Shown: piece by piece, positions 1-10,171 of the stretch
Position numbering within the stretch: position 1 is the stretch's first letter
Layout of the letters: each line of letters begins with the position of its first letter
Source of the DNA: an uncultured archaeon
GTDB taxonomy: Archaea > Asgardarchaeota > Thorarchaeia > Thorarchaeales > Thorarchaeaceae
Direction of reading: 5' to 3'
DNA: 10,171 bases
Assembly: GCA_964648855.1 (NCBI GenBank)
Contig: CAZYLT010000040.1
Span: forward strand, 1 to 10,171
The notes under the pieces: generated by a model
Databases searched by the model: none
Told to the model about the DNA's origin: nothing
What the model saw: the letters and a program-made list of their open reading frames with translations, nothing else
Program-made: the position numbers and the translations under genes

Positions 1-219
1 GGTAGGCAGTTGGGCTGGGGCGGCACAGGGCTGACAGGAGATCAGCCCTGACCAATGCTGAGCTCAGAGGCGATGGAAACGTCTCGTTGAAATCAAGGGT
101 ATAAGCTCGGCTGACGGGTTCCCGAACAGCAACGGAACCCGAGACGAAAGTCTGGCCTAGCGAACTCTTACTAGCCAATTGTGAGCGGTAGGAATGACAA
201 AAAACTTACCCCAGGGGTA
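1..219 (+). rRNA. rrl: 23S rRNA, domain V, exon upstream of the intron (5'-truncated by the window)
   Basis: P-loop region GGCTGGGGCGGCAC (about 13-26), TCAAGGGTATAAGC, and TTACCCCAGGGGTA, which matches the conserved UACCCCAGGGAUAAC leading to A2451 (E. coli numbering). The variants are archaeal-type. Confidence 0.97.
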
Positions 220-958
220 ATCTTTAGCCGGTCGCTGAAAAGCGAGGACAATAAATGCAAATTTGCCAACAAATGAGTGGAGAAAATGGAACGCTGGAAC
301 TTACGAGATGATGAGGACCTCAATGAGGTATCAAGACCTCTTGAAGACCTCAGTCTACGATTCGCCAGCGAAAACGTTGCCTATCTCGCAGGTATATCTG
401 AGGATGCCCACCTCGGTAAAGGTGGAAAGGAAGGATACGTCTTTGATATCGAATCCAAATCAGAACGATGGCTTACTGACATCGTTATGCCTGCGCTCAA
501 ACTTGAGTTTCCTAAGGAAAAGAAGGTTACAGTCAAAAAGCGTGGAACCAGACCTGAGTATCGTATTCAGGTGTGGGATAAACATCTCGTTGAGACTCTC
601 CGAGTCATATCTGAGAGACCCGAGATAATACGATTATGGGGTGTCAAAGAACAACGAGCATGGGTGTGCGGTCTTGCTGATGCAGAAGGCTCAGCAACTC
701 GTAACACCGACAACCAACCACAATTCAGTATCTATAATCAAAGCCTGAAGAAACTTAGAATAGCAGGCGAGATCCTTGAAAGAGATGGTATCCACTTTGG
801 CCTCTACCTACCTAAAGGTAGAGACGTGTGGCAGATGTATCTAACAGGACGCGAGAATCTAAAGCGTTTCTTGGATGTGGAAGCTGGGGTGAGACATCCC
901 GAGAAGCGTTCACGCTTACTGCAATACCTCGCTGAGTAACGCCGACTAAGGACCCTAA
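220..958 (+). other. Archaeal bulge-helix-bulge (BHB/BHL) rRNA intron, 739 nt, between A2450 and A2451 (E. coli numbering)
   Basis: Intron ends pair: TCTTTAGCCGG 221-231 with CCGACTAAGGA 942-952. The central 4-bp helix is GGGG 214-217 / CCCT 953-956, with 3-nt bulges TAA 218-220 and AAA 957-959. Cutting after the second base of each bulge regenerates GGGGUAACAGAG. There is an internal GAAA tetraloop hairpin TCGCT-GAAA-AGCGA at 232-245. Confidence 0.9.
277..939 (+). CDS. Intron-encoded two-motif LAGLIDADG homing endonuclease (alternative ATG start at 286)
   Basis: The ORF lies wholly inside the intron. It has motifs AYLAGISEDAH (degenerate) and AWVCGLADAEGS about 100 aa apart, plus a typical C-terminal 'HPEKRSRL' segment. 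Confidence 0.92.
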   Translation: MEKMERWNLRDDEDLNEVSRPLEDLSLRFASENVAYLAGISEDAHLGKGGKEGYVFDIESKSERWLTDIVMPALKLEFPKEKKVTVKKRGTRPEYRIQVWDKHLVETLRVISERPEIIRLWGVKEQRAWVCGLADAEGSATRNTDNQPQFSIYNQSLKKLRIAGEILERDGIHFGLYLPKGRDVWQMYLTGRENLKRFLDVEAGVRHPEKRSRLLQYLAE

Positions 959-1452
959 ACAGAGTTGTCGCGGGCAAGAGTTCATATCGACCCCGCGGCT
1001 TGCTTCCTCGATGTCGGCTCTTGGTATCCTGGCGTTGCATAAAGCGCCAAGGGTGCGGGTGCTCACCGATTAAAACCGAACGTGAGCTGGGTTTAGACCG
1101 TTGCGAGACAGGTTGGTTTCTCTCTATTGGGACTGTCGGATGTCTGTCGCTAAGATGATACCGGTACGAGAGGAACGTATTGTCGCGGCCAATGGTGTAC
1201 CATTTGTCCGAGAGGGCACTGATGGGTAGCTAAGCCGTAACGGATAACAGCTGAATGCATCTAAGCTGGAAGCCGGAGCATAAACGAGACATCCACTTTA
1301 CAGACTCCCTTAATTGGGCGACGGGGTCGGCGACGACAACGTTGCGTCTGGAAAACGAGGACTCATCTAGAAGAGATGGTTAATAGGGCAGGGGTGTAAG
1401 CTTCGAGGTTCGCCGAGAAGTTCAGCTCACTGCTACTAATGTCCGAGGCTAG
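959..1452 (+). rRNA. rrl: 23S rRNA, 3' exon (rest of domain V and domain VI); 3' end approximate
   Basis: Contains CATATCGAC, CCTCGATGTCGGCTC, GTGAGCTGGGTTTAGACCGT, the sarcin-ricin loop GTACGAGAGGAAC (about 1164-1176), GCTGAATGCATCTAAG and the terminal GTGTAAGC...TACTAAT...GAGGCT. Confidence 0.96.
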
Positions 1453-1556
1453 CAGATCGAAAGTGCAGCTCGCACGTACCTAGAGTTGCGAGTGCGACAA
1501 GGATTGTAGTAAGTGTATATGCTCAGAGAATGCCTTCATCCAATGTAGCTATTTTT
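1393..1556 (+). repeat. Direct repeat copy 1: last ~60 nt of 23S plus ~100-nt structured 3' trailer (resident copy)
   Basis: 1396-1493 is identical to 7033-7130. 1453-1555 aligns with 3354-3455. Confidence 0.95.
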
Positions 1557-1560
1557 AGTT
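1548..1560 (+). terminator. Probable oligo-T terminator of the rRNA transcript
   Basis: GCTATTTTT sits at the end of the structured trailer, where similarity among the three repeat copies ends. It is retained at 7187-7195. Confidence 0.45.
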
Positions 1561-1854
1561 CATTCTAGCATATGACAGCTGGTTTGATATAGCACCTACC
1601 ATCCCGATGACTTCTTTGCTTCTGATGCTCTCCAAAAGCTATACCATCAAATGTCCGACTGTGAAGTGGAGAGCAGAATAATTGACCTCTTATTGGCTAT
1701 CATTCCTATCTTCTAAAAAATTAATTTATGATTGAATCTCTAATGGTGAATATTGCCTTAATATCCGAGTTTCATCCATTCTAGTTAATTCTAATCTTAT
1801 CCTACGCCTATATATGCGTCCTCTATCCATAATAGAACTAGTGTGGGAGAATAA

Positions 1855-2733
1855 TTGAGTATTAGTTTAACGAAATCTAAAAGAGTTCTACTACTAGCTA
1901 TTTTACCCCTGCTATTTATGGCATTTATAGCACCGATACCGAGCGCCAAGACCAGTGCCCAAACACAGTCTTTCAATACAACACGAAACAAACTACTAAG
2001 ACCTAGGATAGGTTCTTTTGACGCTACACGTAGCTTCGATTATCAAGAGAATCATGCTAAAATCACAATTTCCGGAAATGTATCGCTAGATAACGACAAG
2101 AACATTGCAAATTATAAACAGAAAATAGTTATCCGTGATAGCGCGAGTAATAAAAGTGTGAATGAAGTAAGAGAGGTCAGTAGGTCTATTCCGGTCATAT
2201 CTATGGATTTTGAGAGCACAACATCATCCAATAGTATGGTGCCAGCGCTTGACGACTATGGGACTTTTGTTTACTTCACATGGCATGGCATAACTCATAT
2301 GATTCGCACCTATGGAAACAGTCAACAGTGGGTCAAATACGAACATCCTGATAATTACTATACTTATCATCCTCAACAGTGGAATCTCCAATGGGATCAA
2401 TCTGTTGGAAATGGATACGGGATGATTCACCATTCACAATCAACAGTGTATCAAGCCATCCAAGCTAACAGCATTTGGGTTGTAGCGATGGCAATCGCAG
2501 ATGCTGCAATTGGTATGTACTTGCTTACCTTGGCAGCTATAACACTTGCAGCATGGATAGTCGCAGGTCTTCTTGCTATCCTCACTGTCTACTTTGTTGC
2601 GGTAGGTTGGTGGCTGGAACATGTTCTTAAGGCCGAACAAGATGACGGATGGCCATATACATATTGGAATGGCGTGTTTCTACAGGCATCATATGGTGGC
2701 TGGAAGGATCTCTGGATATATTCATGGGGATGA
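1855..2733 (+). CDS. Secreted or membrane protein of unknown function: signal peptide, soluble region, C-terminal hydrophobic helices (candidate archaeocin-like protein)
   Basis: 292-aa ORF with a TTG start after GGGAG. It has a KSKR + hydrophobic N-terminus and an Ala/Leu-rich hydrophobic stretch of about 45 aa followed by a Trp/Tyr/Gly-rich tail. Confidence 0.8.
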   Translation: MSISLTKSKRVLLLAILPLLFMAFIAPIPSAKTSAQTQSFNTTRNKLLRPRIGSFDATRSFDYQENHAKITISGNVSLDNDKNIANYKQKIVIRDSASNKSVNEVREVSRSIPVISMDFESTTSSNSMVPALDDYGTFVYFTWHGITHMIRTYGNSQQWVKYEHPDNYYTYHPQQWNLQWDQSVGNGYGMIHHSQSTVYQAIQANSIWVVAMAIADAAIGMYLLTLAAITLAAWIVAGLLAILTVYFVAVGWWLEHVLKAEQDDGWPYTYWNGVFLQASYGGWKDLWIYSWG

Positions 2734-3281
2734 ATGATATGGATTCGAAAAGCCTCAAGCTGGATTCAATCGAGGGAAATTATTTGCTCTCTATACGCTT
2801 CTTACCATTCACCATTCTGGACATAGCATTAGCTGTGGTTAGCACGCTTGGGATCACATTAGCTTGGATCCAAAGGCCTTCTTCTACCTGGATCTATGAA
2901 ATCAGTACTATGGACGCCGTCATCCTGTATGTTATCTTGGCATTCCTCGGCTTCTCGGTGGGAGTTTATTTACTGCGTAGATTCGAAAAGAAGTTTATCA
3001 AGAAAGAAGCAGTTCGTGTTTCTATTCCCTACATGATACTTGTACTGAGCCCCCCATTCTCTGTGGTATCGGTAGTCTTGGGCTTTGCGGTCAATACTGC
3101 TCTTGGCGGATTTGGTGGGCTTGCATGGAGCTATTTGTTCTATGGACCGGGATTAGGACTCTTACTCGCTCGATTTCTTTACTTCATTCATAGGTCACGG
3201 CTTTGGACGTTCAGACCCATCCCCAATGAGGAACCGGAAGCTTTTCCGAATGTCAAGCAATACATTGTTTCAAAACGGTAA
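2730..3281 (+). CDS. Integral membrane protein, about 4 TM helices (183 aa from the ATG at 2730), translationally coupled to the upstream gene
   Basis: The ATG at 2730 overlaps the upstream TGA (ATGA) and is in frame with the listed 2649..3281 ORF. There are four hydrophobic segments separated by a basic loop (RRFEKKFIKKE). Confidence 0.8.
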   Translation: MNDMDSKSLKLDSIEGNYLLSIRFLPFTILDIALAVVSTLGITLAWIQRPSSTWIYEISTMDAVILYVILAFLGFSVGVYLLRRFEKKFIKKEAVRVSIPYMILVLSPPFSVVSVVLGFAVNTALGGFGGLAWSYLFYGPGLGLLLARFLYFIHRSRLWTFRPIPNEEPEAFPNVKQYIVSKR

Positions 3282-3353
3282 ATTCGTTCGATGTCTAGAC
3301 AATTCAATATAATGCATATCTAGTTGTTTGGCTACTATAGAGAAGCAGTACAA

Positions 3354-3455
3354 CAGATTGAAAGTGCAGCTCGCACGTACCTAGAGTTGCGGGCGCAGCA
3401 AGGATTGTAGAACGTGTATATGGTCAAGAACTGCCTTCATCCGATGCAGCTATTT
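3354..3455 (+). repeat. Direct repeat copy 2: diverged copy of the 23S 3' trailer
   Basis: CAGATTGAAAGTGCAGCTCGCACGTACCTAGAGTTGCG...CAAGGATTGTAG...GTGTATATG...TGCCTTCATCC...AGCTATTT aligns with 1453-1555 and 7090-7194. Confidence 0.93.
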
Positions 3456-3539
3456 ATTCATACAATATTAGTTCAACCAAGAACTGGGGATTCTCTATTA
3501 GATTAGAATGTTTGTACATGAGTGGTTGGTGCGCACATA

Positions 3540-4031
3540 TTACATGAAGCGCTTTACAATTTCTCTTATCTCAGGGTAGGACAAAATGAGCGCTACACTC
3601 ATCAGGACAAACCCCATTGAGATGACCCTCGGATGTGGTGTCGCTCGGTACACGTTAATATTCACCCAAGATTCTGATGGGCTGATATTCGATTGGGTAA
3701 CGACGAGGAAGTAGGCTTTGTCGCTAGGTAGATCGATAACGCCTTGGTAGTTGCTTGTGTTCTCTATAGATACAATAGGGGATACATTCTCCATAGAGTA
3801 TTCTCTGAACAACTTCATTCCGCTTTCATTATCAAACAGGTAGAGAGAGAAAGTACTCTCAGTCAGAGACTGTGCGTTCACAAGGATATCACCGCTGTTC
3901 ATGACTATCATACCGCTGAACTCACCATCCTTATTTGTGAAGTCGTTCCCTCCTATTCTACTGGGGGCAAATGAAAATAGGAGAAGGAGAACTCCAATGA
4001 ATAAGAGTGGTTTTGAAAGGCGTTTCCGCAT
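3540..4031 (-). CDS. Membrane protein with N- and C-terminal TM helices and an extracellular beta-rich domain (163 aa)
   Basis: Likely ATG at 4031 (MRKRLSKPLLFIG...) after an SD-like GGGGTG, just downstream of the permease stop codon. Both termini are hydrophobic. Confidence 0.78.
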   Translation of the reverse strand: MRKRLSKPLLFIGVLLLLFSFAPSRIGGNDFTNKDGEFSGMIVMNSGDILVNAQSLTESTFSLYLFDNESGMKLFREYSMENVSPIVSIENTSNYQGVIDLPSDKAYFLVVTQSNISPSESWVNINVYRATPHPRVISMGFVLMSVALILSYPEIREIVKRFM

Positions 4032-4036
4032 TTTGT

Positions 4037-4834
4037 TCACACCCCTGTTCGCCGGAATACTGCATAACTGGCCGCCATTAGCAAAACGACGAGGATACAT
4101 GACATGCCCATAGCCATTATGATATCTATAAGCGTGATATCTATAGAAACGTATACCCATATTGGACCAGTACCAATGTACTTGCCAATCACTCCTGGTA
4201 GAAATAGAATCATTTTCATGAGTGGCGGTGCATTAAGCCAAGTGAAAAGAAAGAAAGAGCCAAACATGATAGCAATAGAACCAAATGAGGTCGCCAATGA
4301 ATTCCTAGTAATACCACCAACCAAGAAAGCAATAGCTGTCGTTAAAGAAATATGCACCCAAAGCGAAACTAAAACAATAACAGCAGATGCTAAACCATAG
4401 ACGAGAGGGACAAAGAAAAACACACTAGATATACATCCCATAACAGCCGCCATCCCCACCCAGAATACTACATTCATGTACTTCAATAGAAAAAGGTCAC
4501 CTCTCTTAATCGGAAAAGAGAGCAGCGTCCGAAATAACCCACTATCATATCCCCCTGCAAATGTGAAGCCAACAACAAGTGGAACGATAATCATCAAAGG
4601 AAAGATGAAATTTGCCGCTGAAGTCACTAAGACTGAGATACCCATGTCTTTTATGGCATTAGAGATCAACTCTAGTCTACCTATATCTGGACCTGAAATT
4701 GTGATGTTTCTGGACGAGTGTGTCAAGGCCGAATACATGCCTGCAACAAGAAATGTTCCTATTATGGCAGCAATTGCCGGAAATGAAAACTTGCTCTCCA
4801 TCTCAAATTGAATGACACTCTTCTTTTTAGTCAT
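4037..4834 (-). CDS. ABC-2 type transporter permease
   Basis: About 6 TM segments and the motif 'YDSGLFRTLLSFPIKRGDLFLLKY', typical of ABC-2/NosY-like permeases. It overlaps the ATPase gene. Confidence 0.9.
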   Translation of the reverse strand: MTKKKSVIQFEMESKFSFPAIAAIIGTFLVAGMYSALTHSSRNITISGPDIGRLELISNAIKDMGISVLVTSAANFIFPLMIIVPLVVGFTFAGGYDSGLFRTLLSFPIKRGDLFLLKYMNVVFWVGMAAVMGCISSVFFFVPLVYGLASAVIVLVSLWVHISLTTAIAFLVGGITRNSLATSFGSIAIMFGSFFLFTWLNAPPLMKMILFLPGVIGKYIGTGPIWVYVSIDITLIDIIMAMGMSCILVVLLMAASYAVFRRTGV

Positions 4835-5774
4835 GTTCTGTTTGAGCTCCTATCACCTTTCGATATACTTCTTCAAGACTTCTGCTTGGTTCAATCTTGT
4901 ATATCTCAATATCTTGTTGGACCGCAATATCTCTAACCAATGATTCGATGTCTCCTTCCAAATCAGAATGCCCTTCTACTACCAAACTGGCAACTCCAAG
5001 AACCAGCGTTTCCTCAATGTTTGCATTCTCTTTTAGGTGCTTGGAGAGCTGGTGAGCGTCAGAAGTTATTATTTGATACCGATTTCGAGTGTGCTTTGCT
5101 ATTAGCTTATCCACTGGTCCATAATCAAAGAGGCGTCCCTTCTTGATGAAGGCTACTGAATGACATGCGCGTTCTAGTTCAGATAAAATATGAGAGGAGA
5201 TTAAGAAAGAGATATCCTCCTCTTTGTGAAGTTTAACGATAAGACTCACAACTTCATCTCGTCCTCGAACATCGAGATGAGAAGTGGGTTCGTCAAGAAA
5301 AATGAGACGAGGATTTCCTACGAGGGTTTGAGCGAATCCGAGCCGCTGATACATTCCAGCAGAAAGATGTCGAATCTGTTTATCGGCTGCATGCAAAATA
5401 CCCACCCTTGATAGTATTTCATATATGTCGCTATCTGTACCATGGAATCTGTTTGCCGCTTTCAAAAAGGCAGATGGAGTCATAGAGGGCGGAAAATAGG
5501 CCTTCTCATGCAAAACTCTTACTCGCCTGCGTACCTCTATGGATTCAGTAACAACATTATGACCCAAGACCCTTGCGATACCTCCATCAGGTCTAAGTAG
5601 GCCTAACAATGTTCTGATGAGAGTTGTCTTTCCTGCGCCATTCGGTCCAATCAGACCAGTAACACCCGACTCTATATTCAGTGTCAGTCTATCCAATGCT
5701 TGCAAATTACCATATGATTTTCGTAGCTCTCTTATGGATATTACAAACTCTGGTACTGTCATACTCTCATCCAC
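4827..5774 (-). CDS. ABC transporter ATP-binding protein (exporter type)
   Basis: Walker A GPNGAGKTT, signature LSAGMYQR, Walker B IFLDEPT, H-loop SSHILSELE. Confidence 0.96.
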   Translation of the reverse strand: MDESMTVPEFVISIRELRKSYGNLQALDRLTLNIESGVTGLIGPNGAGKTTLIRTLLGLLRPDGGIARVLGHNVVTESIEVRRRVRVLHEKAYFPPSMTPSAFLKAANRFHGTDSDIYEILSRVGILHAADKQIRHLSAGMYQRLGFAQTLVGNPRLIFLDEPTSHLDVRGRDEVVSLIVKLHKEEDISFLISSHILSELERACHSVAFIKKGRLFDYGPVDKLIAKHTRNRYQIITSDAHQLSKHLKENANIEETLVLGVASLVVEGHSDLEGDIESLVRDIAVQQDIEIYKIEPSRSLEEVYRKVIGAQTEHD

Positions 5775-5849
5775 GTATGAATTCGCTTTGACTGGTATTT
5801 CTTCTAAGGGGTTGTTTTACCAGATACTACTGACAAGTCTGTTTCACCA

Positions 5850-6326
5850 TTAATAATCAGCTATGACATACGGGGTATCATCAAAGGTCCAGGTATGAAC
5901 TGTGTTATCGCCATCATCAAGGCAATCAACAAATCGAAGTTCCAGCGTAGAACATGTTGCATCGGTAATTAGCCAGTCCAGGTCACTACTCCAAATATCG
6001 AAATACGCGATATCAGTCCACGTAGTTTGTGTACCCCATCGATATTGTGCCAGTAGGCTCTCCGCATTGGGCCAGCCAGGAGAAACCCCTACGAAGTCTA
6101 TATGAATGTAGTAATCGTCACCATCGGTTCGAATTCCTGAATAATAGAATTTGAACTTACAACGATAATCATCGTCAACATTCTCTTCAGTCGCCTTGTA
6201 TTGACCTGATTGTTCGGTCCAAGAACCCCATGTTACACTTGGTTCGTCATCGTTATAGGTTGACCTGCCTGCCATAACAGGACCCACAGAACCAAGTATT
6301 ATCACAGCTGCTACAAAAATGGGCAT
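5850..6326 (-). CDS. Small acidic secreted protein of unknown function (ORF can extend to a GTG at 6359)
   Basis: ATG at 6326 is preceded by AGAGGAG. A signal-peptide-like PIFVAAVIILGSVGPVMA is followed by an Asp/Trp/Tyr/Thr-rich, beta-like mature domain. Confidence 0.75.
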   Translation of the reverse strand: MPIFVAAVIILGSVGPVMAGRSTYNDDEPSVTWGSWTEQSGQYKATEENVDDDYRCKFKFYYSGIRTDGDDYYIHIDFVGVSPGWPNAESLLAQYRWGTQTTWTDIAYFDIWSSDLDWLITDATCSTLELRFVDCLDDGDNTVHTWTFDDTPYVIADY

Positions 6327-6579
6327 TATGTTACTCCTCTTACCCAAGTGTAATCCCACCGACTAACAGAAGGGCAATGCCCCTCATTGGTAGGTAAATG
6401 GTACACCATTTCCAATAAATGTTTTGTATTTTCAAGTTGACTTCGATTAGACCTATCATTTTTATGGCTTCTTGAAAGTCATCGACAGTCACAAGAGATT
6501 TACATGAAACAGATAGGATACTATTTCAGAAACATACTGCAGAAACCCTTGCTTACTAGTATTTAGCCTACGATAGAGT

Positions 6580-7000
6580 CATCATTATTGAGCTTAAACA
6601 TTTACTCATAAACTAAAGGCAAAACTGGTGAATTGCATTGCCGTTCTCTAAAGATTTGTACAATTTCTAAGATCAGATAGGTTTCTAACATCCATCGTGC
6701 GATCATGGCTCCACTCTATGGAGGAAAATCATAGATGCTATAAGATTCATGCGAAATCGGCGGGGGCATAACCCCTTGTCGCTCTAAGCAATAGACCCCC
6801 CATTTGCCTCCCAGACTTGTCATGTTCACAGTGATTGTGGGAAACATATTGAGAGATGGTCACCAACAGAGAGAAAGGATGGAGAGGACTTTTGGTGTGA
6901 AGAGTGCGATGAATATTTCCACGCAGGCATCAATGCCGCTCGCAATTCCATTCATGTACAAGATAACCTATCCAGCACCATTCCTGAACGGAGGCCTTGA
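6580..7000 (+). pseudogene. tnpB: Decayed tnpB (RNA-guided RuvC nuclease, IS200/IS605/IS607 family), C-terminal portion; 5' boundary uncertain
   Basis: Manual translation across frameshifts: IAVL*-DL (about 6637-6658, RuvC-II-like, weak), WRKIIDAIRF...*AIDP, then SQTCHVHSDCGKH...FWCEECDEYFHAGINAARNS...RRP* (TGA 6998-7000). This matches the TnpB pattern DPxxTSQxCxxCG...FxCxxC...ADxNAAxNI, with the RuvC-III Asp changed to Gly. Confidence 0.8.
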
Positions 7001-7029
7001 AATCCAAGGTTGTGCTAATAACAATGAAC

Positions 7030-7195
7030 GGCGTAAGCTTCGAGGTTCGCCGAGAAGTTCAGCTCACTGCTACTAATGTCCGAGGCTAGCAGATCGAAAG
7101 TGCAGCTCGCACGTACCTAGAGTTGCGAGTACGCAGCAAGGATTGTAGTAAGTGTATATGGTCGACAGATGCCTTCATCCGGTGCAGCTATTTTT
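7030..7195 (+). repeat. Direct repeat copy 3: displaced 23S 3' end plus trailer and T-tract (attR-like)
   Basis: 98 bp identical to 1396-1493, preceded by GGC versus GGT at 1393-1395. The distal trailer differs by substitutions and small indels. Confidence 0.96.
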
Positions 7196-7329
7196 CTTCA
7201 TTTCAAGATTCTTCAGCGTGCTGTTCAAATTTTATTCTAGAAAAGAAGTATTGATATTGAACATACAACTATACAACAGTGAGAAGGTTTTCTAATACTA
7301 CAAGTAGCATGCTTTGGGGATCACTGGTG

Positions 7330-8880
7330 ATGAAAAGGGGCTCTGGGTCAATCCTAATGGCATATATCATTGTTCTAAACCTAATTGGTTTCCTATCATT
7401 TCCATTATTGGATAGCAAGCAGCATCCTTCATTATTAAGCGACAGCGGAATTGGTGAGTATTCTGTTGCTGATGAGAGTTCGCCTATATCCATCCGCTCA
7501 GATTCTGAACTCATGGCCAAGGCTAAAACTGAGAGGTGGCCAGGAACAGGGACCATTGATGCTCCTTACCTTATTGAGAACTTAACAATACGAAGTGATG
7601 TAACCTGTATAAGAATTCAACACACATCTCTATATTTCCGGTTGGGCCACAGCCGTCTCCTGTCAAAGAGTGAATCCAATGGAGTTGGTCTGTACTTTCA
7701 CAATGTGACAAATGCAGTAGTGAAGAATATGACTATTGCAAACAAGAGAATCGGAATGGTGATCCAAAGCTCGAATAATTGTGTCTTCTTGAAAAACAGT
7801 GTGAAATCAATCTCTGATGCCGGTATTAAAATTTCAGACTCAAGCTACATGAAAGTTTTACAGAACACAGCAAAACGAGCGTATATTGGCTATGAACTAT
7901 CTCAGTTGAGATATTCCATTCTCAACAAAAATAATGCCACACTCATTTCTTCAAATGCAATAGATTTCTATGATGGTACTGATTGTGTGCTACACGCTAA
8001 CACCATCAATGCAGTTCAAGGATCCGGCTTGATAATACGTCAATCGGACAACCTTTCTATCAGCCTTAACACCGCATATCTCTCCGAGCAGGATGGGTTT
8101 GTACTCCAAGGCCTCCACTCTTGCTCGTTCACCAATAACACATCAGTGCTGAATGGGGCTAATGGCTTCTTCTTTGATGATTGTGATCGTTGCACAATTT
8201 ATGGGAACATAGCTGTTCAAAATGTGAGAAATGGCATATCCGCTCCGCGCCTCCAGAATGACTCCATTATTCATAATCTTCTCTGTGCCAACGGTGGTTT
8301 TGGTCTGCAATCTGGCTATGCCAGATTCCCCTCGGTGCTATCAGATAACTCGCTGGGATGGAATAGGGGAGGTAATGCTTGGGAAAATGCTGATGAGAAT
8401 ATTTGGCTAGGAAACAAATGGAGCGACTATGACGGCTCGAGAGAATACAGCATTTCTGGCTGGGCAAACGCAAATGATACAAATCCTTCATTGCTAGTAG
8501 ACACTCTATCTCCTATGATTTATCAGCCAGAAGAACTAGTGGAAGTCAAAGACAACGAAAGCATTGTTATACAATGGCATATCTGGGACTGTCAACCATC
8601 GAGGTATGAGATATACCTTAATGGAACTGAAATTGAGGCAGGAGATTGGAATCGTCCGGATATCCATATCTGGCTAGGACCATTTGAAGAAGGCACCTAT
8701 ATCATTATGTTTCAGGTTTTTGACGAGAATGGACACTCGGCAACAAATACAGTGCTTGTCTACGTGTCGGCAAGGTACAACGTTTCGATGAATTCCTTTT
8801 TCTTGCGATTAGCAATTGGGTTGGTTCTAATCTCTTCATTTTCAATTGTATACTGTTATTTTCGAAAGAGGGATGTATGA
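7330..8880 (+). CDS. Secreted, C-terminally anchored right-handed parallel beta-helix (NosD/CASH-like) protein with an Ig-like domain (ORF open from 7279)
   Basis: Signal or TM N-terminus, 'PISIRSDSEL...WPGTGTIDAPYLIENLTI' cap, repeated G-hydrophobic/Asn-ladder PbH1 units, 'GNKWSDYDGS...DTNP' motif, 'DTLSPMI...YEIYLNGT' Ig-like module, and a C-terminal TM followed by RKRDV. Confidence 0.9.
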   Translation: MKRGSGSILMAYIIVLNLIGFLSFPLLDSKQHPSLLSDSGIGEYSVADESSPISIRSDSELMAKAKTERWPGTGTIDAPYLIENLTIRSDVTCIRIQHTSLYFRLGHSRLLSKSESNGVGLYFHNVTNAVVKNMTIANKRIGMVIQSSNNCVFLKNSVKSISDAGIKISDSSYMKVLQNTAKRAYIGYELSQLRYSILNKNNATLISSNAIDFYDGTDCVLHANTINAVQGSGLIIRQSDNLSISLNTAYLSEQDGFVLQGLHSCSFTNNTSVLNGANGFFFDDCDRCTIYGNIAVQNVRNGISAPRLQNDSIIHNLLCANGGFGLQSGYARFPSVLSDNSLGWNRGGNAWENADENIWLGNKWSDYDGSREYSISGWANANDTNPSLLVDTLSPMIYQPEELVEVKDNESIVIQWHIWDCQPSRYEIYLNGTEIEAGDWNRPDIHIWLGPFEEGTYIIMFQVFDENGHSATNTVLVYVSARYNVSMNSFFLRLAIGLVLISSFSIVYCYFRKRDV

Positions 8881-9197: not shown

Positions 9198-9629
9198 CTA
9201 CTCATCTCGCCTTTTTTCGATGAATTGAACAATATGTTGAGCTAGAAGATCGATATCTCCGACATTCTCTTGAAGAATCGAATACAAAATCTCGTTGTCG
9301 AAATCTCCATAGAGGTGTACGATTCGATTTCTGAACCTTGCCATCTCTTGAAGGCTCTCAGCGAGATTTGTGGGCAGGACTTGATTCTTCTCGAGGATTT
9401 CGAACACAGATGCATAATCCTGTGGCCTCTCCCATCCCATAGATCCTATGATGTGATTGCCAATATCGAGACAAATCTGAATCGCTTCCAATAGGTAGTA
9501 TTTCGCAGCTCCCAATTTGATTCTGTCAGCAAGAAAGGTTTCTTTTTCCTCTTCAGCGATATCTCGAAGCAAGCTCATGGTTGTTGTCAGTCTAGCGAGT
9601 TTCGCATCCATGACATTCATATTATTCAT
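9198..9629 (-). CDS. hepT: HEPN (DUF86, HepT-like) RNase toxin
   Basis: RX4HXY motif RNRIVHLY. The gene overlaps the upstream nucleotidyltransferase gene by 4 bp. Confidence 0.92.
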   Translation of the reverse strand: MNNMNVMDAKLARLTTTMSLLRDIAEEEKETFLADRIKLGAAKYYLLEAIQICLDIGNHIIGSMGWERPQDYASVFEILEKNQVLPTNLAESLQEMARFRNRIVHLYGDFDNEILYSILQENVGDIDLLAQHIVQFIEKRRDE

Positions 9630-10057
9630 AGTTTGCCAGTCTCCAGGATTCTCTGATGCATATTCCGATTATAGTCAGCAATCATTGGCTTGAAATCAAG
9701 AAAGTGCATCACTGCTCGGTCCTCGAATTCAAGTCTTCTCCTTTCATCTTTACAGAGGACTACCTTCCCCTCTGATATGACTCGAAATTGTAGCTCAAGA
9801 AACGCCTCATTGAGGTTTCTCACATCCACGTCATGCCCAAGCTGTCCAGATAGCTTTTCCGATAGTCGCAGTAATTCCCTCTTCCGTTCCTTGACAGGGG
9901 CTTCTTTTGTCCAGAGAATCGCAATATCCAAATCACTGAGAGGGGTTGCTTCTCCTCTCGCATATGATCCGTACAGATAGCATGCTATCACAGAGCTATC
10001 TTGAATCATCTCCTCTAGGGCACTAGAAACCTTATCGAGGGATATTTCTTGAACCAA
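9626..10057 (-). CDS. mntA: Minimal nucleotidyltransferase (MntA-like) antitoxin
   Basis: GSX10DXD motif (GSYARGEATPLSDLD), a third acidic strand VDV, and position directly upstream of the HEPN gene. Confidence 0.92.
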   Translation of the reverse strand: MVQEISLDKVSSALEEMIQDSSVIACYLYGSYARGEATPLSDLDIAILWTKEAPVKERKRELLRLSEKLSGQLGHDVDVRNLNEAFLELQFRVISEGKVVLCKDERRRLEFEDRAVMHFLDFKPMIADYNRNMHQRILETGKL

Positions 10058-10171
10058 GGTGTTAGGCCTCCATAATCTACGGCTACCAATATTACATCTT
10101 CAATTTTGTTCTTTGCGGTCAATAGGACCCTTGTCAAATATCCATTTAGAGCAACACATTGCCATAGTCGT

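Follow-up and report, generated by a model that had tools for sequence, protein, structure and literature searches.

The DNA analysed here, positions 1 to 10,171 of contig CAZYLT010000040.1 (C40; hereafter the window, 10,171 nt in all), belongs to a Thorarchaeota bin of 62 contigs (GCA_964648855.1; source genome G000) that was assembled from a short-read metagenome and is 94.6% complete. It opens within a 23S rRNA gene, and the end of this gene together with its trailer (the tail) recurs downstream in direct orientation, separating blocks of accessory genes (cassettes). We are confident that the locus is a serial tail-replacement array, in which incoming DNA would have supplied the gene with a new end and displaced the old one. 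For the fuller statement, that the cassettes of such an array are swapped by homologous recombination between the tails, we regard the case as evenly balanced.

The 23S tail and its copies

The 3′ third of the 23S gene occupies positions 1..1458 of the + strand (Rfam RF02540, model positions 2326-2987, 468 bits) and is cut by the contig start; placement on the Rfam archaeal large-subunit (LSU) rRNA puts the mature 3′ end at about 1458. The resident tail, T1 (1393..1556, +), comprises the last 66 nt of the gene (1393-1458), a 97-nt trailer (1459-1555) and a T-run. Two orphan tails follow on the same strand: T2 (3354..3455), with the last 6 nt of 23S and the trailer, aligns to 1453-1554 at 86-88% identity (E 1e-30), and T3 (7030..7195), with the last 63-66 nt of 23S, the trailer and the T-run, is by BLAST 92-93% identical to 1393-1556 (E 1e-64), rising to 98% over the first 104 nt. 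An earlier note on this DNA, written from the sequence alone, had placed three co-oriented copies of the rRNA end and trailer at these very positions, and repeat finding, alignment and BLAST confirm them well beyond chance expectation. Its blocks of about 1.8 and 3.6 kb measure 1797 and 3574 nt, their genes lying on opposite strands as it had stated.

A fourth tail, T4, is found on contig C47 (6761-6624), some 56 nt beyond window position 10171 and co-oriented with T1-T3. Contig joins were inferred from exact 55-nt end overlaps within the assembly: among these 55-mers, the right end of C40 matches an end of C47 only, and the other end of C47 matches the start of C44 only. The resulting order is 23S-T1, cassette 1, T2, cassette 2, T3, cassette 3, T4, a 2-oxoacid dehydrogenase operon and a conserved flank, and T1 to T4 all lie on the + strand of the C40-C47 scaffold, whatever the orientation of the cassette genes. 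A fifth tail, T5 (C24:27236-27369), stands outside this scaffold in the contig chain C27-C48-C25-C24-C43-C2, with unannotated ORFs (open reading frames) on one side and a gene for an aromatic amino-acid lyase on the other; either a second array of which it is the remnant or a rearrangement at a tail could account for it. In the relative G002 (contig C8), a homologue of one ORF next to T5 (L007 8198-8995) is located some 2.7 kb away from a copy of the 23S tail.

BLAST and an nhmmer profile agree on a genome total of five tails in 3.1 Mb, and the profile revealed no decayed tails beyond these five, either on the C40-C47-C44 scaffold or in the whole genome. The expectation in the earlier note of copies only downstream of 23S was disappointed, since the C24 copy and one in the relative G015 (G015:C1:13276, about 240 kb from the 23S gene of that genome) lie elsewhere. 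All copies share one 3′ edge, GCAGCTATTT running into the T-run. Their 5′ starts are ragged (23S positions 1393, 1421, 1426 and 1453). T2 and T5 are 94% identical to each other. Rfam assigns the tails to no family beyond 23S itself (the first 66 nt of T1), giving otherwise sub-threshold chance matches only, and a tRNA scan of the window found none. An exact 17-nt match to trailer positions 1528-1544 was seen at C16:56180-56196 (- strand), about 390 nt from the contig end, where ~0.1 would be expected by chance.

The nature of the repeat is suggested by relatives in which both ends of the 23S gene can be compared. In G023, G003 and G012 the ~100-nt trailer forms, along its full extent, a duplex with the 23S 5′ leader (-107 kcal/mol in G023 and -92 kcal/mol in G003; 69 intermolecular pairs in G012); in these relatives the base of the leader-trailer helix falls at the repeat's 3′ edge, immediately ahead of the T-run. 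As the window trailers are homologous to those of these genera, we infer the same processing-helix role for the window tails. Judged from sequence, the repeat unit appears to be a functional pre-23S tail, in which the end of 23S (a few to 66 nt) is followed by the complete 3′ strand of the processing helix and by an oligo-T stop. The sharp common 3′ edge would then exist because the trailer is one strand of that helix. None of the five tails folds better than shuffled sequence (z +0.1 to +1.4), as would be expected of a strand whose pairing partner is the distant 23S leader. At paired sites the orphans of G012 carry 91 substitutions that keep pairing with the resident leader and 67 that break it, counts that are non-independent because the copies are related, and in the core of the G012 tails 15 of 15 informative sites are transitions; this substitution pattern fits orphans that would have been working tails when acquired. 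The interpretation of the spare copies as displaced gene ends, whole trailer and T-run included, was already made in the earlier note and stands, and the 23S gene as the anchor of the array is likewise supported.

Tails and cassettes in related genomes

Forty relatives were searched with the 23S end as the query; this cross-genus search gave 12 extra copies of that end in G012, five in G015, three each in G019 and G002, and two in G003. Numbers are higher when a genome is queried with its own tail. In this way G012 yielded at least 19 copies on five short contigs that start and end in tails, and orientation within each contig is uniform (5/5, 4/4, 6/6, 4/4 and 2/2). Arrays directly behind the 23S gene lie inside long contigs of G015 (C1, 255 kb), G019 (C3, 250 kb) and G003 (C46, 81 kb). 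Across the family, cassettes of 1-8 kb stand between co-oriented tails, of which a genome may hold up to 30 or more. No extra tail was detected behind 23S in G004, G011, G010, G014, G007, G005 or G016, where some 2-18 kb were readable, depending on the contig end; the first 5-15 kb behind 23S are still poorly conserved there.

The long contigs bear on the reading of the array as a chimera of strain variants, joined by the assembler via the rRNA tail. The bin does come from short reads, its window contig has one end within 23S and the other at a graph break, and contigs of relatives frequently terminate in a tail or shortly behind one. However, the copies differ by 7-14%, so that they are not collapsed, a de Bruijn contig does not traverse one repeat three times, and the same layout is present within the 81-255-kb contigs of independent assemblies. 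An artefact of this kind is, in our judgment, scarcely credible. Hardly better placed, and in our estimate very improbable, is a tail acting as a small mobile repeat, similar to a short interspersed nuclear element (SINE) or a miniature inverted-repeat transposable element (MITE), possibly derived from pre-rRNA 3′ ends and peppering an ordinary variable region. Copies truncated at the 5′ side with the 3′ end fixed at the transcript T-run would suit such a repeat, as would the single copies far from 23S (C24 and G015:C1:13276), but orientation is uniform within every contig, the copies cluster behind 23S, neither a reverse transcriptase nor a target-site duplication was seen, and five copies in 3.1 Mb are few.

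In three species of genus g12 the tails, which are mostly 85-97% identical, number at least 30, 29 and 13, and a 13-kb array contig of one species has no more than three short cassette segments in common with the other two. With tails this similar and hardly any cassette DNA shared, the tails are conserved while the cassettes turn over. Variation in cassette number and content among relatives, which the earlier note had anticipated, is strong, and in several relatives no extra tail was detected in the readable stretch behind 23S.

Cargo types recur in diverged form. In G012 and G015 the stretches between tails include ABC modules of the same three families as that of the window, at 21-50% aa identity. 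The HepT/MNT pair of the window has a counterpart (74% nt, 70-72% aa identity) in G012:C32, where it makes up a 1-kb cassette with a tail at either end. The Pfam assignments seen most often in 117 ORFs from the arrays of relatives are leucine-rich repeat (LRR), ABC, GNAT, nucleotidyltransferase/HepT, PIN and N6-methylase. Several G012 cassettes (L029 12939, L033 321, L031 11179, L032 13483 and L033 4088) end in paralogous sequence encoding a hydrophobic C-terminal stretch and a basic tail (e.g., ...VILVVLYIKKRQ*), with the stop codon about 10 nt before the tail copy; these paralogous ends indicate a surface-protein gene family repeatedly joined to tails. The array behind the 23S gene of G019 (C3, 1-20000) contains six paralogous LRR proteins and, 8.7 kb downstream, another 23S fragment, a long one with some 200 nt of the gene and its trailer.

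Probable recombination at the tails

Under the mechanism that we favour, recombination would occur inside the 23S tail. Entering DNA would carry its own complete working tail, which would become the new end of the gene, and the previous tail would be pushed downstream as an orphan. Orphans would in turn offer further recombination joints, blocks being added, lost or swapped at any tail. The agent is most likely the cell's own homologous recombination, for which the tails (100-165 nt) and the conserved body of the 23S gene would supply the homology; we think a dedicated integrase less probable. Co-orientation, ragged 5′ starts and a common 3′ edge are expected of any crossover within the tail, by integrase or by homologous recombination alike. 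The latter is favoured because no recombinase was detected, the tails are mosaic, there is no decay with distance, and the 5′ starts are spread over 60 nt.

The mosaicism is clearest in T4, which resembles T2 at every informative site on its left and T1 at every one on its right (estimated p ~0.004). T3 and T5 are also patchworks of tail variants, and in the G012 tails 65 of 105 site pairs fail the four-gamete test. Identity of the core to T1 does not fall with distance (T2 86%, T3 89%, T4 90%), and this flat profile is easier to reconcile with recombination at any of the tails than with insertion strictly at the gene. Homologous recombination had been one of several options in the earlier note; the tail mosaics are what favour it here.

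Several observations weigh against this interpretation. A pairwise homoplasy index (PHI)-type recombination test on the G012 tails was not significant (p 0.25), and recurrent transitions could mimic some of the mosaicism. The longest orphans of several genera begin in one zone of 23S (positions 1391-1406). Cassettes shared between genera are only as similar as ordinary orthologs (70-72% aa identity), so that recent transfer is unsupported, and homologous recombination alone leaves the origin of the first orphan tail unexplained. The 23S 5′ leader is absent from the source assembly, and the pairing of T1-T4 rests on homology with the relatives; a single short-read assembly, with its 55-nt overlaps, is the basis for the block order and for the joins C40-C47-C44. 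Lastly, a novel recombinase can escape profile searches, the genome is 94.6% complete, and the tyrosine recombinase profile gave no Xer-type match either, which suggests limited sensitivity.

The shared start zone, together with the single 3′ edge, would agree with site-specific integration, in which the blocks are (former) integrative elements whose attP copies the 23S tail and an integrase, or a recombinase of an unfamiliar kind, acts in trans or has been lost. The topology, too, is that of tRNA-targeting islands: the gene end is restored, the partial copies are co-oriented and the blocks are stacked in tandem. Yet profiles for tyrosine (PF00589) and serine (PF00239) recombinases gave no match in G000 or G012 and none near the arrays of G015, G019 and G003. 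Matches to Cas1 (PF01867) are CRISPR-type and reside on contigs other than the array contigs, and integrase fragments are not among the 25 most frequent of the 113 Pfam families matched by the 117 array ORFs. The invariant tail 32-mer is absent from the viral (IMG/VR), genome and metagenome contig collections; nine IMG/VR matches to a degenerate tail pattern were dismissed as chance, since there was no further similarity. The 60-nt spread of 5′ starts, the crossover in the middle of T4 and the lack of a decay gradient away from the gene also speak against site-specific integration, which we consider unlikely. Self-contained integrative elements, as the earlier note had envisaged them, were not borne out: neither circles nor an attP-bearing element nor a tail on IMG/VR contigs was found. 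Its remark that the window has no recombinase holds, and extends to the genome, with the reservation that a tnpB remnant is present at ~6690-7000.

A somewhat better prospect, though one we hold only tentatively, is that the 23S tail is the dedicated site of a hitherto undescribed gene-capture system distributed across Asgard lineages, either integrase-free or run by an unfamiliar enzyme, with the tails kept by selection. In a variant of that idea, TnpB-like RNA-guided nucleases with 23S-tail guides may drive the spread by homing.

The tnpB remnant adjoins T3. The 3′ part of a tnpB gene and the right end (RE) of its insertion sequence (IS) occupy 6690..7032 (+ strand), PF07282 matching at 6719-6946 with 31.8 bits, above the cut-off. 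The frame has the Zn-ribbon, a RuvC-III motif reading HAG instead of HAD and an in-frame TAA, and ends at a stop codon at 6998-7000. Truncated at its 5′ end, with HAG for HAD and an internal stop, the gene is dead, with at least 1.5 kb gone from its left side. Seven homologous IS copies in genomes of the family have their last 160-240 nt in common, and the homology ends at window positions 7030-7032, where a conserved CAATGAACG-R-Y gives way to unrelated flanks. In every copy CAATGAACG is followed by R-Y, which makes it more probable that C7032 is part of the element than of the target. From the shared end-point of the seven homologues, T3 has an IS right-end junction as its 5′ edge, not a cassette joint, and the simplest reading of the whole is secondary insertion of the IS into an orphan tail followed by deletion of its left part. 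The C-terminal Zn-ribbon, the RuvC-III region and the sharp conserved right end are shared with tnpB elements of the IS200/IS605 type; unlike these, only about 340 nt are left here, and the left end and any tnpA are absent. In intact relatives of the IS the homology at the nucleotide level extends at most over the tnpB gene and in no case beyond its 5′ end, and the full-length TnpBs of G000 are unrelated to the remnant. The family has unusually long ORFs (stop-to-stop frames of up to 711 codons); two copies from genus g7 (G049 and G022) have the same flank right after the end, and one copy lies 93 nt upstream of a tRNA gene.

The position of this right end, abutting T3, invites a model of nuclease-driven homing, in which a TnpB or homing endonuclease cuts a naive 23S tail and repair copies the donor tail and its cargo. 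The predicted guide of the T3-adjoining element would read 23S from about position 1396, with a resident match of ~100 nt, and HeimM2, an 8-kb element between the sole 16S rRNA gene and a tRNA-Arg gene of Ca. Heimdallarchaeum endolithica, has a homing-endonuclease homologue (Wu et al. 2022, PMC8813620). Against homing stands, besides the death of this tnpB gene and its simplest reading as a late IS insertion, a pattern search of 86 family genomes for the RE|23S junction, which returned the window alone plus one chance match. No TnpB (PF07282) was found in the array contigs of G012, G015, G019 and G003, and no LAGLIDADG gene in the array contigs of G000 and the four array-bearing relatives; besides the 23S intron, the LAGLIDADG matches (PF14528) fall within large ORFs (258-1379 aa) on non-array contigs. 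A 13-mer guide scan of G000 gave only the 17-nt match at C16:56180, where no tnpB gene was located, and there is no guide-length tail match beside any other located tnpB gene of that genome. Moreover, if a cut in the resident tail were repaired from an orphan downstream, cassettes would be lost rather than gained. We rate homing as improbable.

The ends of tRNA and tmRNA genes are classic landing sites of genomic islands and are served by integrases. The tycheposon islands of Prochlorococcus are tandem islands at tRNA/tmRNA 3′ ends (Hackl et al., bioRxiv 10.1101/2020.12.28.424599). As in those islands, the array uses the end of a stable-RNA gene as its anchor, and incoming DNA restores that end (the 23S gene is complete to model position 2987); co-oriented partial gene copies lie between the blocks, newcomers push older blocks outward, and niche and defence cargo differs in content between close relatives. 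Unlike them, the anchor here is the 23S tail with its processing-helix strand rather than a tRNA, the repeats are 100-165 nt long instead of ~40 nt, neither an intact nor a fragmentary integrase was found in the arrays or in the genome at large, and there is no proximal-distal decay gradient. Additive and replacement flexible genomic islands, as reportedly set out by Lopez-Perez, Martin-Cuadrado and Rodriguez-Valera in 2014, are said to be maintained by homologous recombination. The array resembles them in that accessory blocks are swapped via conserved flanking homology with no dedicated enzyme, and in its repeated homology at block borders, its differing content between relatives and its mosaic borders (T4); it differs in that the homology is repeated inside the island (up to 30 or more tails) and that the repeat is an rRNA processing element.

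Integrons have also been reported in Archaea. Like an integron, the array is a fixed platform accumulating cassettes that are separated by a recurring site, a likeness drawn in the earlier note that fails on intI, attC and cassette form: there is no IntI, and no tyrosine recombinase in the window or genome; the tails have no attC-like hairpin, folding no better than shuffles; and the cassettes hold 2-4 genes in the window, or 1-6 in relatives, on either strand. The nearest Asgard parallel found in the literature is HeimM2, which is again a mobile element at an rRNA gene end, with LRR-type cargo (compare the LRR proteins in the G019 array); it is, however, a single element with a homing-endonuclease homologue for which no rRNA-tail repeat array is described, and the arrays considered here have no endonuclease gene. 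A full-text literature search found no description of rRNA-tail cassette arrays.

An rRNA gene end with its processing-helix strand would thus take the landing role of a tRNA gene across an Asgard family, with no recognisable integrase. If the joints work by ordinary recombination, they offer a simple archaeal route to build, shuffle and share accessory genes, the shareable cargo then including surface proteins, exporters, toxin-antitoxin pairs, restriction-modification-type methylases and even a metabolic operon. In practice, tail repeats will cause breaks or false joins next to the rRNA genes in Asgard metagenome bins, and the same repeats provide entry points for outward PCR and long reads, by which the flexible gene pool of Asgard archaea that are uncultured could be sampled.

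The island and its cargo

The products of the inter-copy blocks are predicted by transmembrane (TM) scan to be secreted or membrane proteins, in agreement with the earlier note. Cassette 1 (1557..3353, + strand) consists of two ORFs with no Pfam family: one of 292 aa (1855-2733) with a signal-peptide-like N-terminus and C-terminal TM segments, and one of 210 aa (2649-3281) with three TM-like segments. Cassette 2 (3456..7029, - strand) encodes an ABC-type exporter module made up of a membrane protein recognised in the TM scan (3540-4160, 206 aa), a permease-like protein with 6-7 TM segments (4037-4834, 265 aa), an ABC ATPase (4827-5774; PF00005, E 8e-27) and an acidic protein predicted to be secreted (5850-6359, 169 aa), all on the - strand. 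Cassette 3 has genes on both strands; it runs from 7196 to the end of the window (10171), the block being ended by T4 just past it. Its surface protein (7279-8880, +, 533 aa) has an N-terminal TM segment, a right-handed beta-helix (PF13229) and a C-terminal TM anchor, and is followed by a HepT/MNT toxin-antitoxin pair on the - strand (9198-9629 and 9626-10057; PF01934 and PF18765). GC content is 0.37-0.45 across the whole non-rRNA part of the window, and the cassettes do not stand out by their base composition.

The accessory-gene island measures at least some 17 kb, and the window covers the part of it nearest to the 23S gene. Contig C44 forms its conserved distal flank, because genes found on it sit 8-17 kb downstream of 23S in G007, G020, G005, G023 and G017. 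The operon that follows T4 on C47 (L006 1758-6526) encodes a complete four-gene E1alpha-E1beta-E2-E3 2-oxoacid dehydrogenase; on its far side no tail was detected. It is a second copy, found only in the source genus (91% aa identity in G001), and shows 34% identity to the family-wide orthologue on C1; the best match outside, in another family, reaches 48%. A whole metabolic operon therefore seems to be cargo of the island. In the assembly of G001, which is of the same genus, no tail was recovered, and the contig there breaks off within the E3 gene.

The 23S gene itself is interrupted in domain V by an insertion of 762 nt (~171-932) bearing a LAGLIDADG ORF (277-939, 220 aa; PF14528, E 3e-10), which looks like a homing-type rRNA intron. 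The window contig begins only 170 nt upstream of this insertion. The 23S gene on contig C46 of G003 has, in place of such a LAGLIDADG-ORF insertion, a group I intron (L069 754-1084; RF00028, 114 bits).

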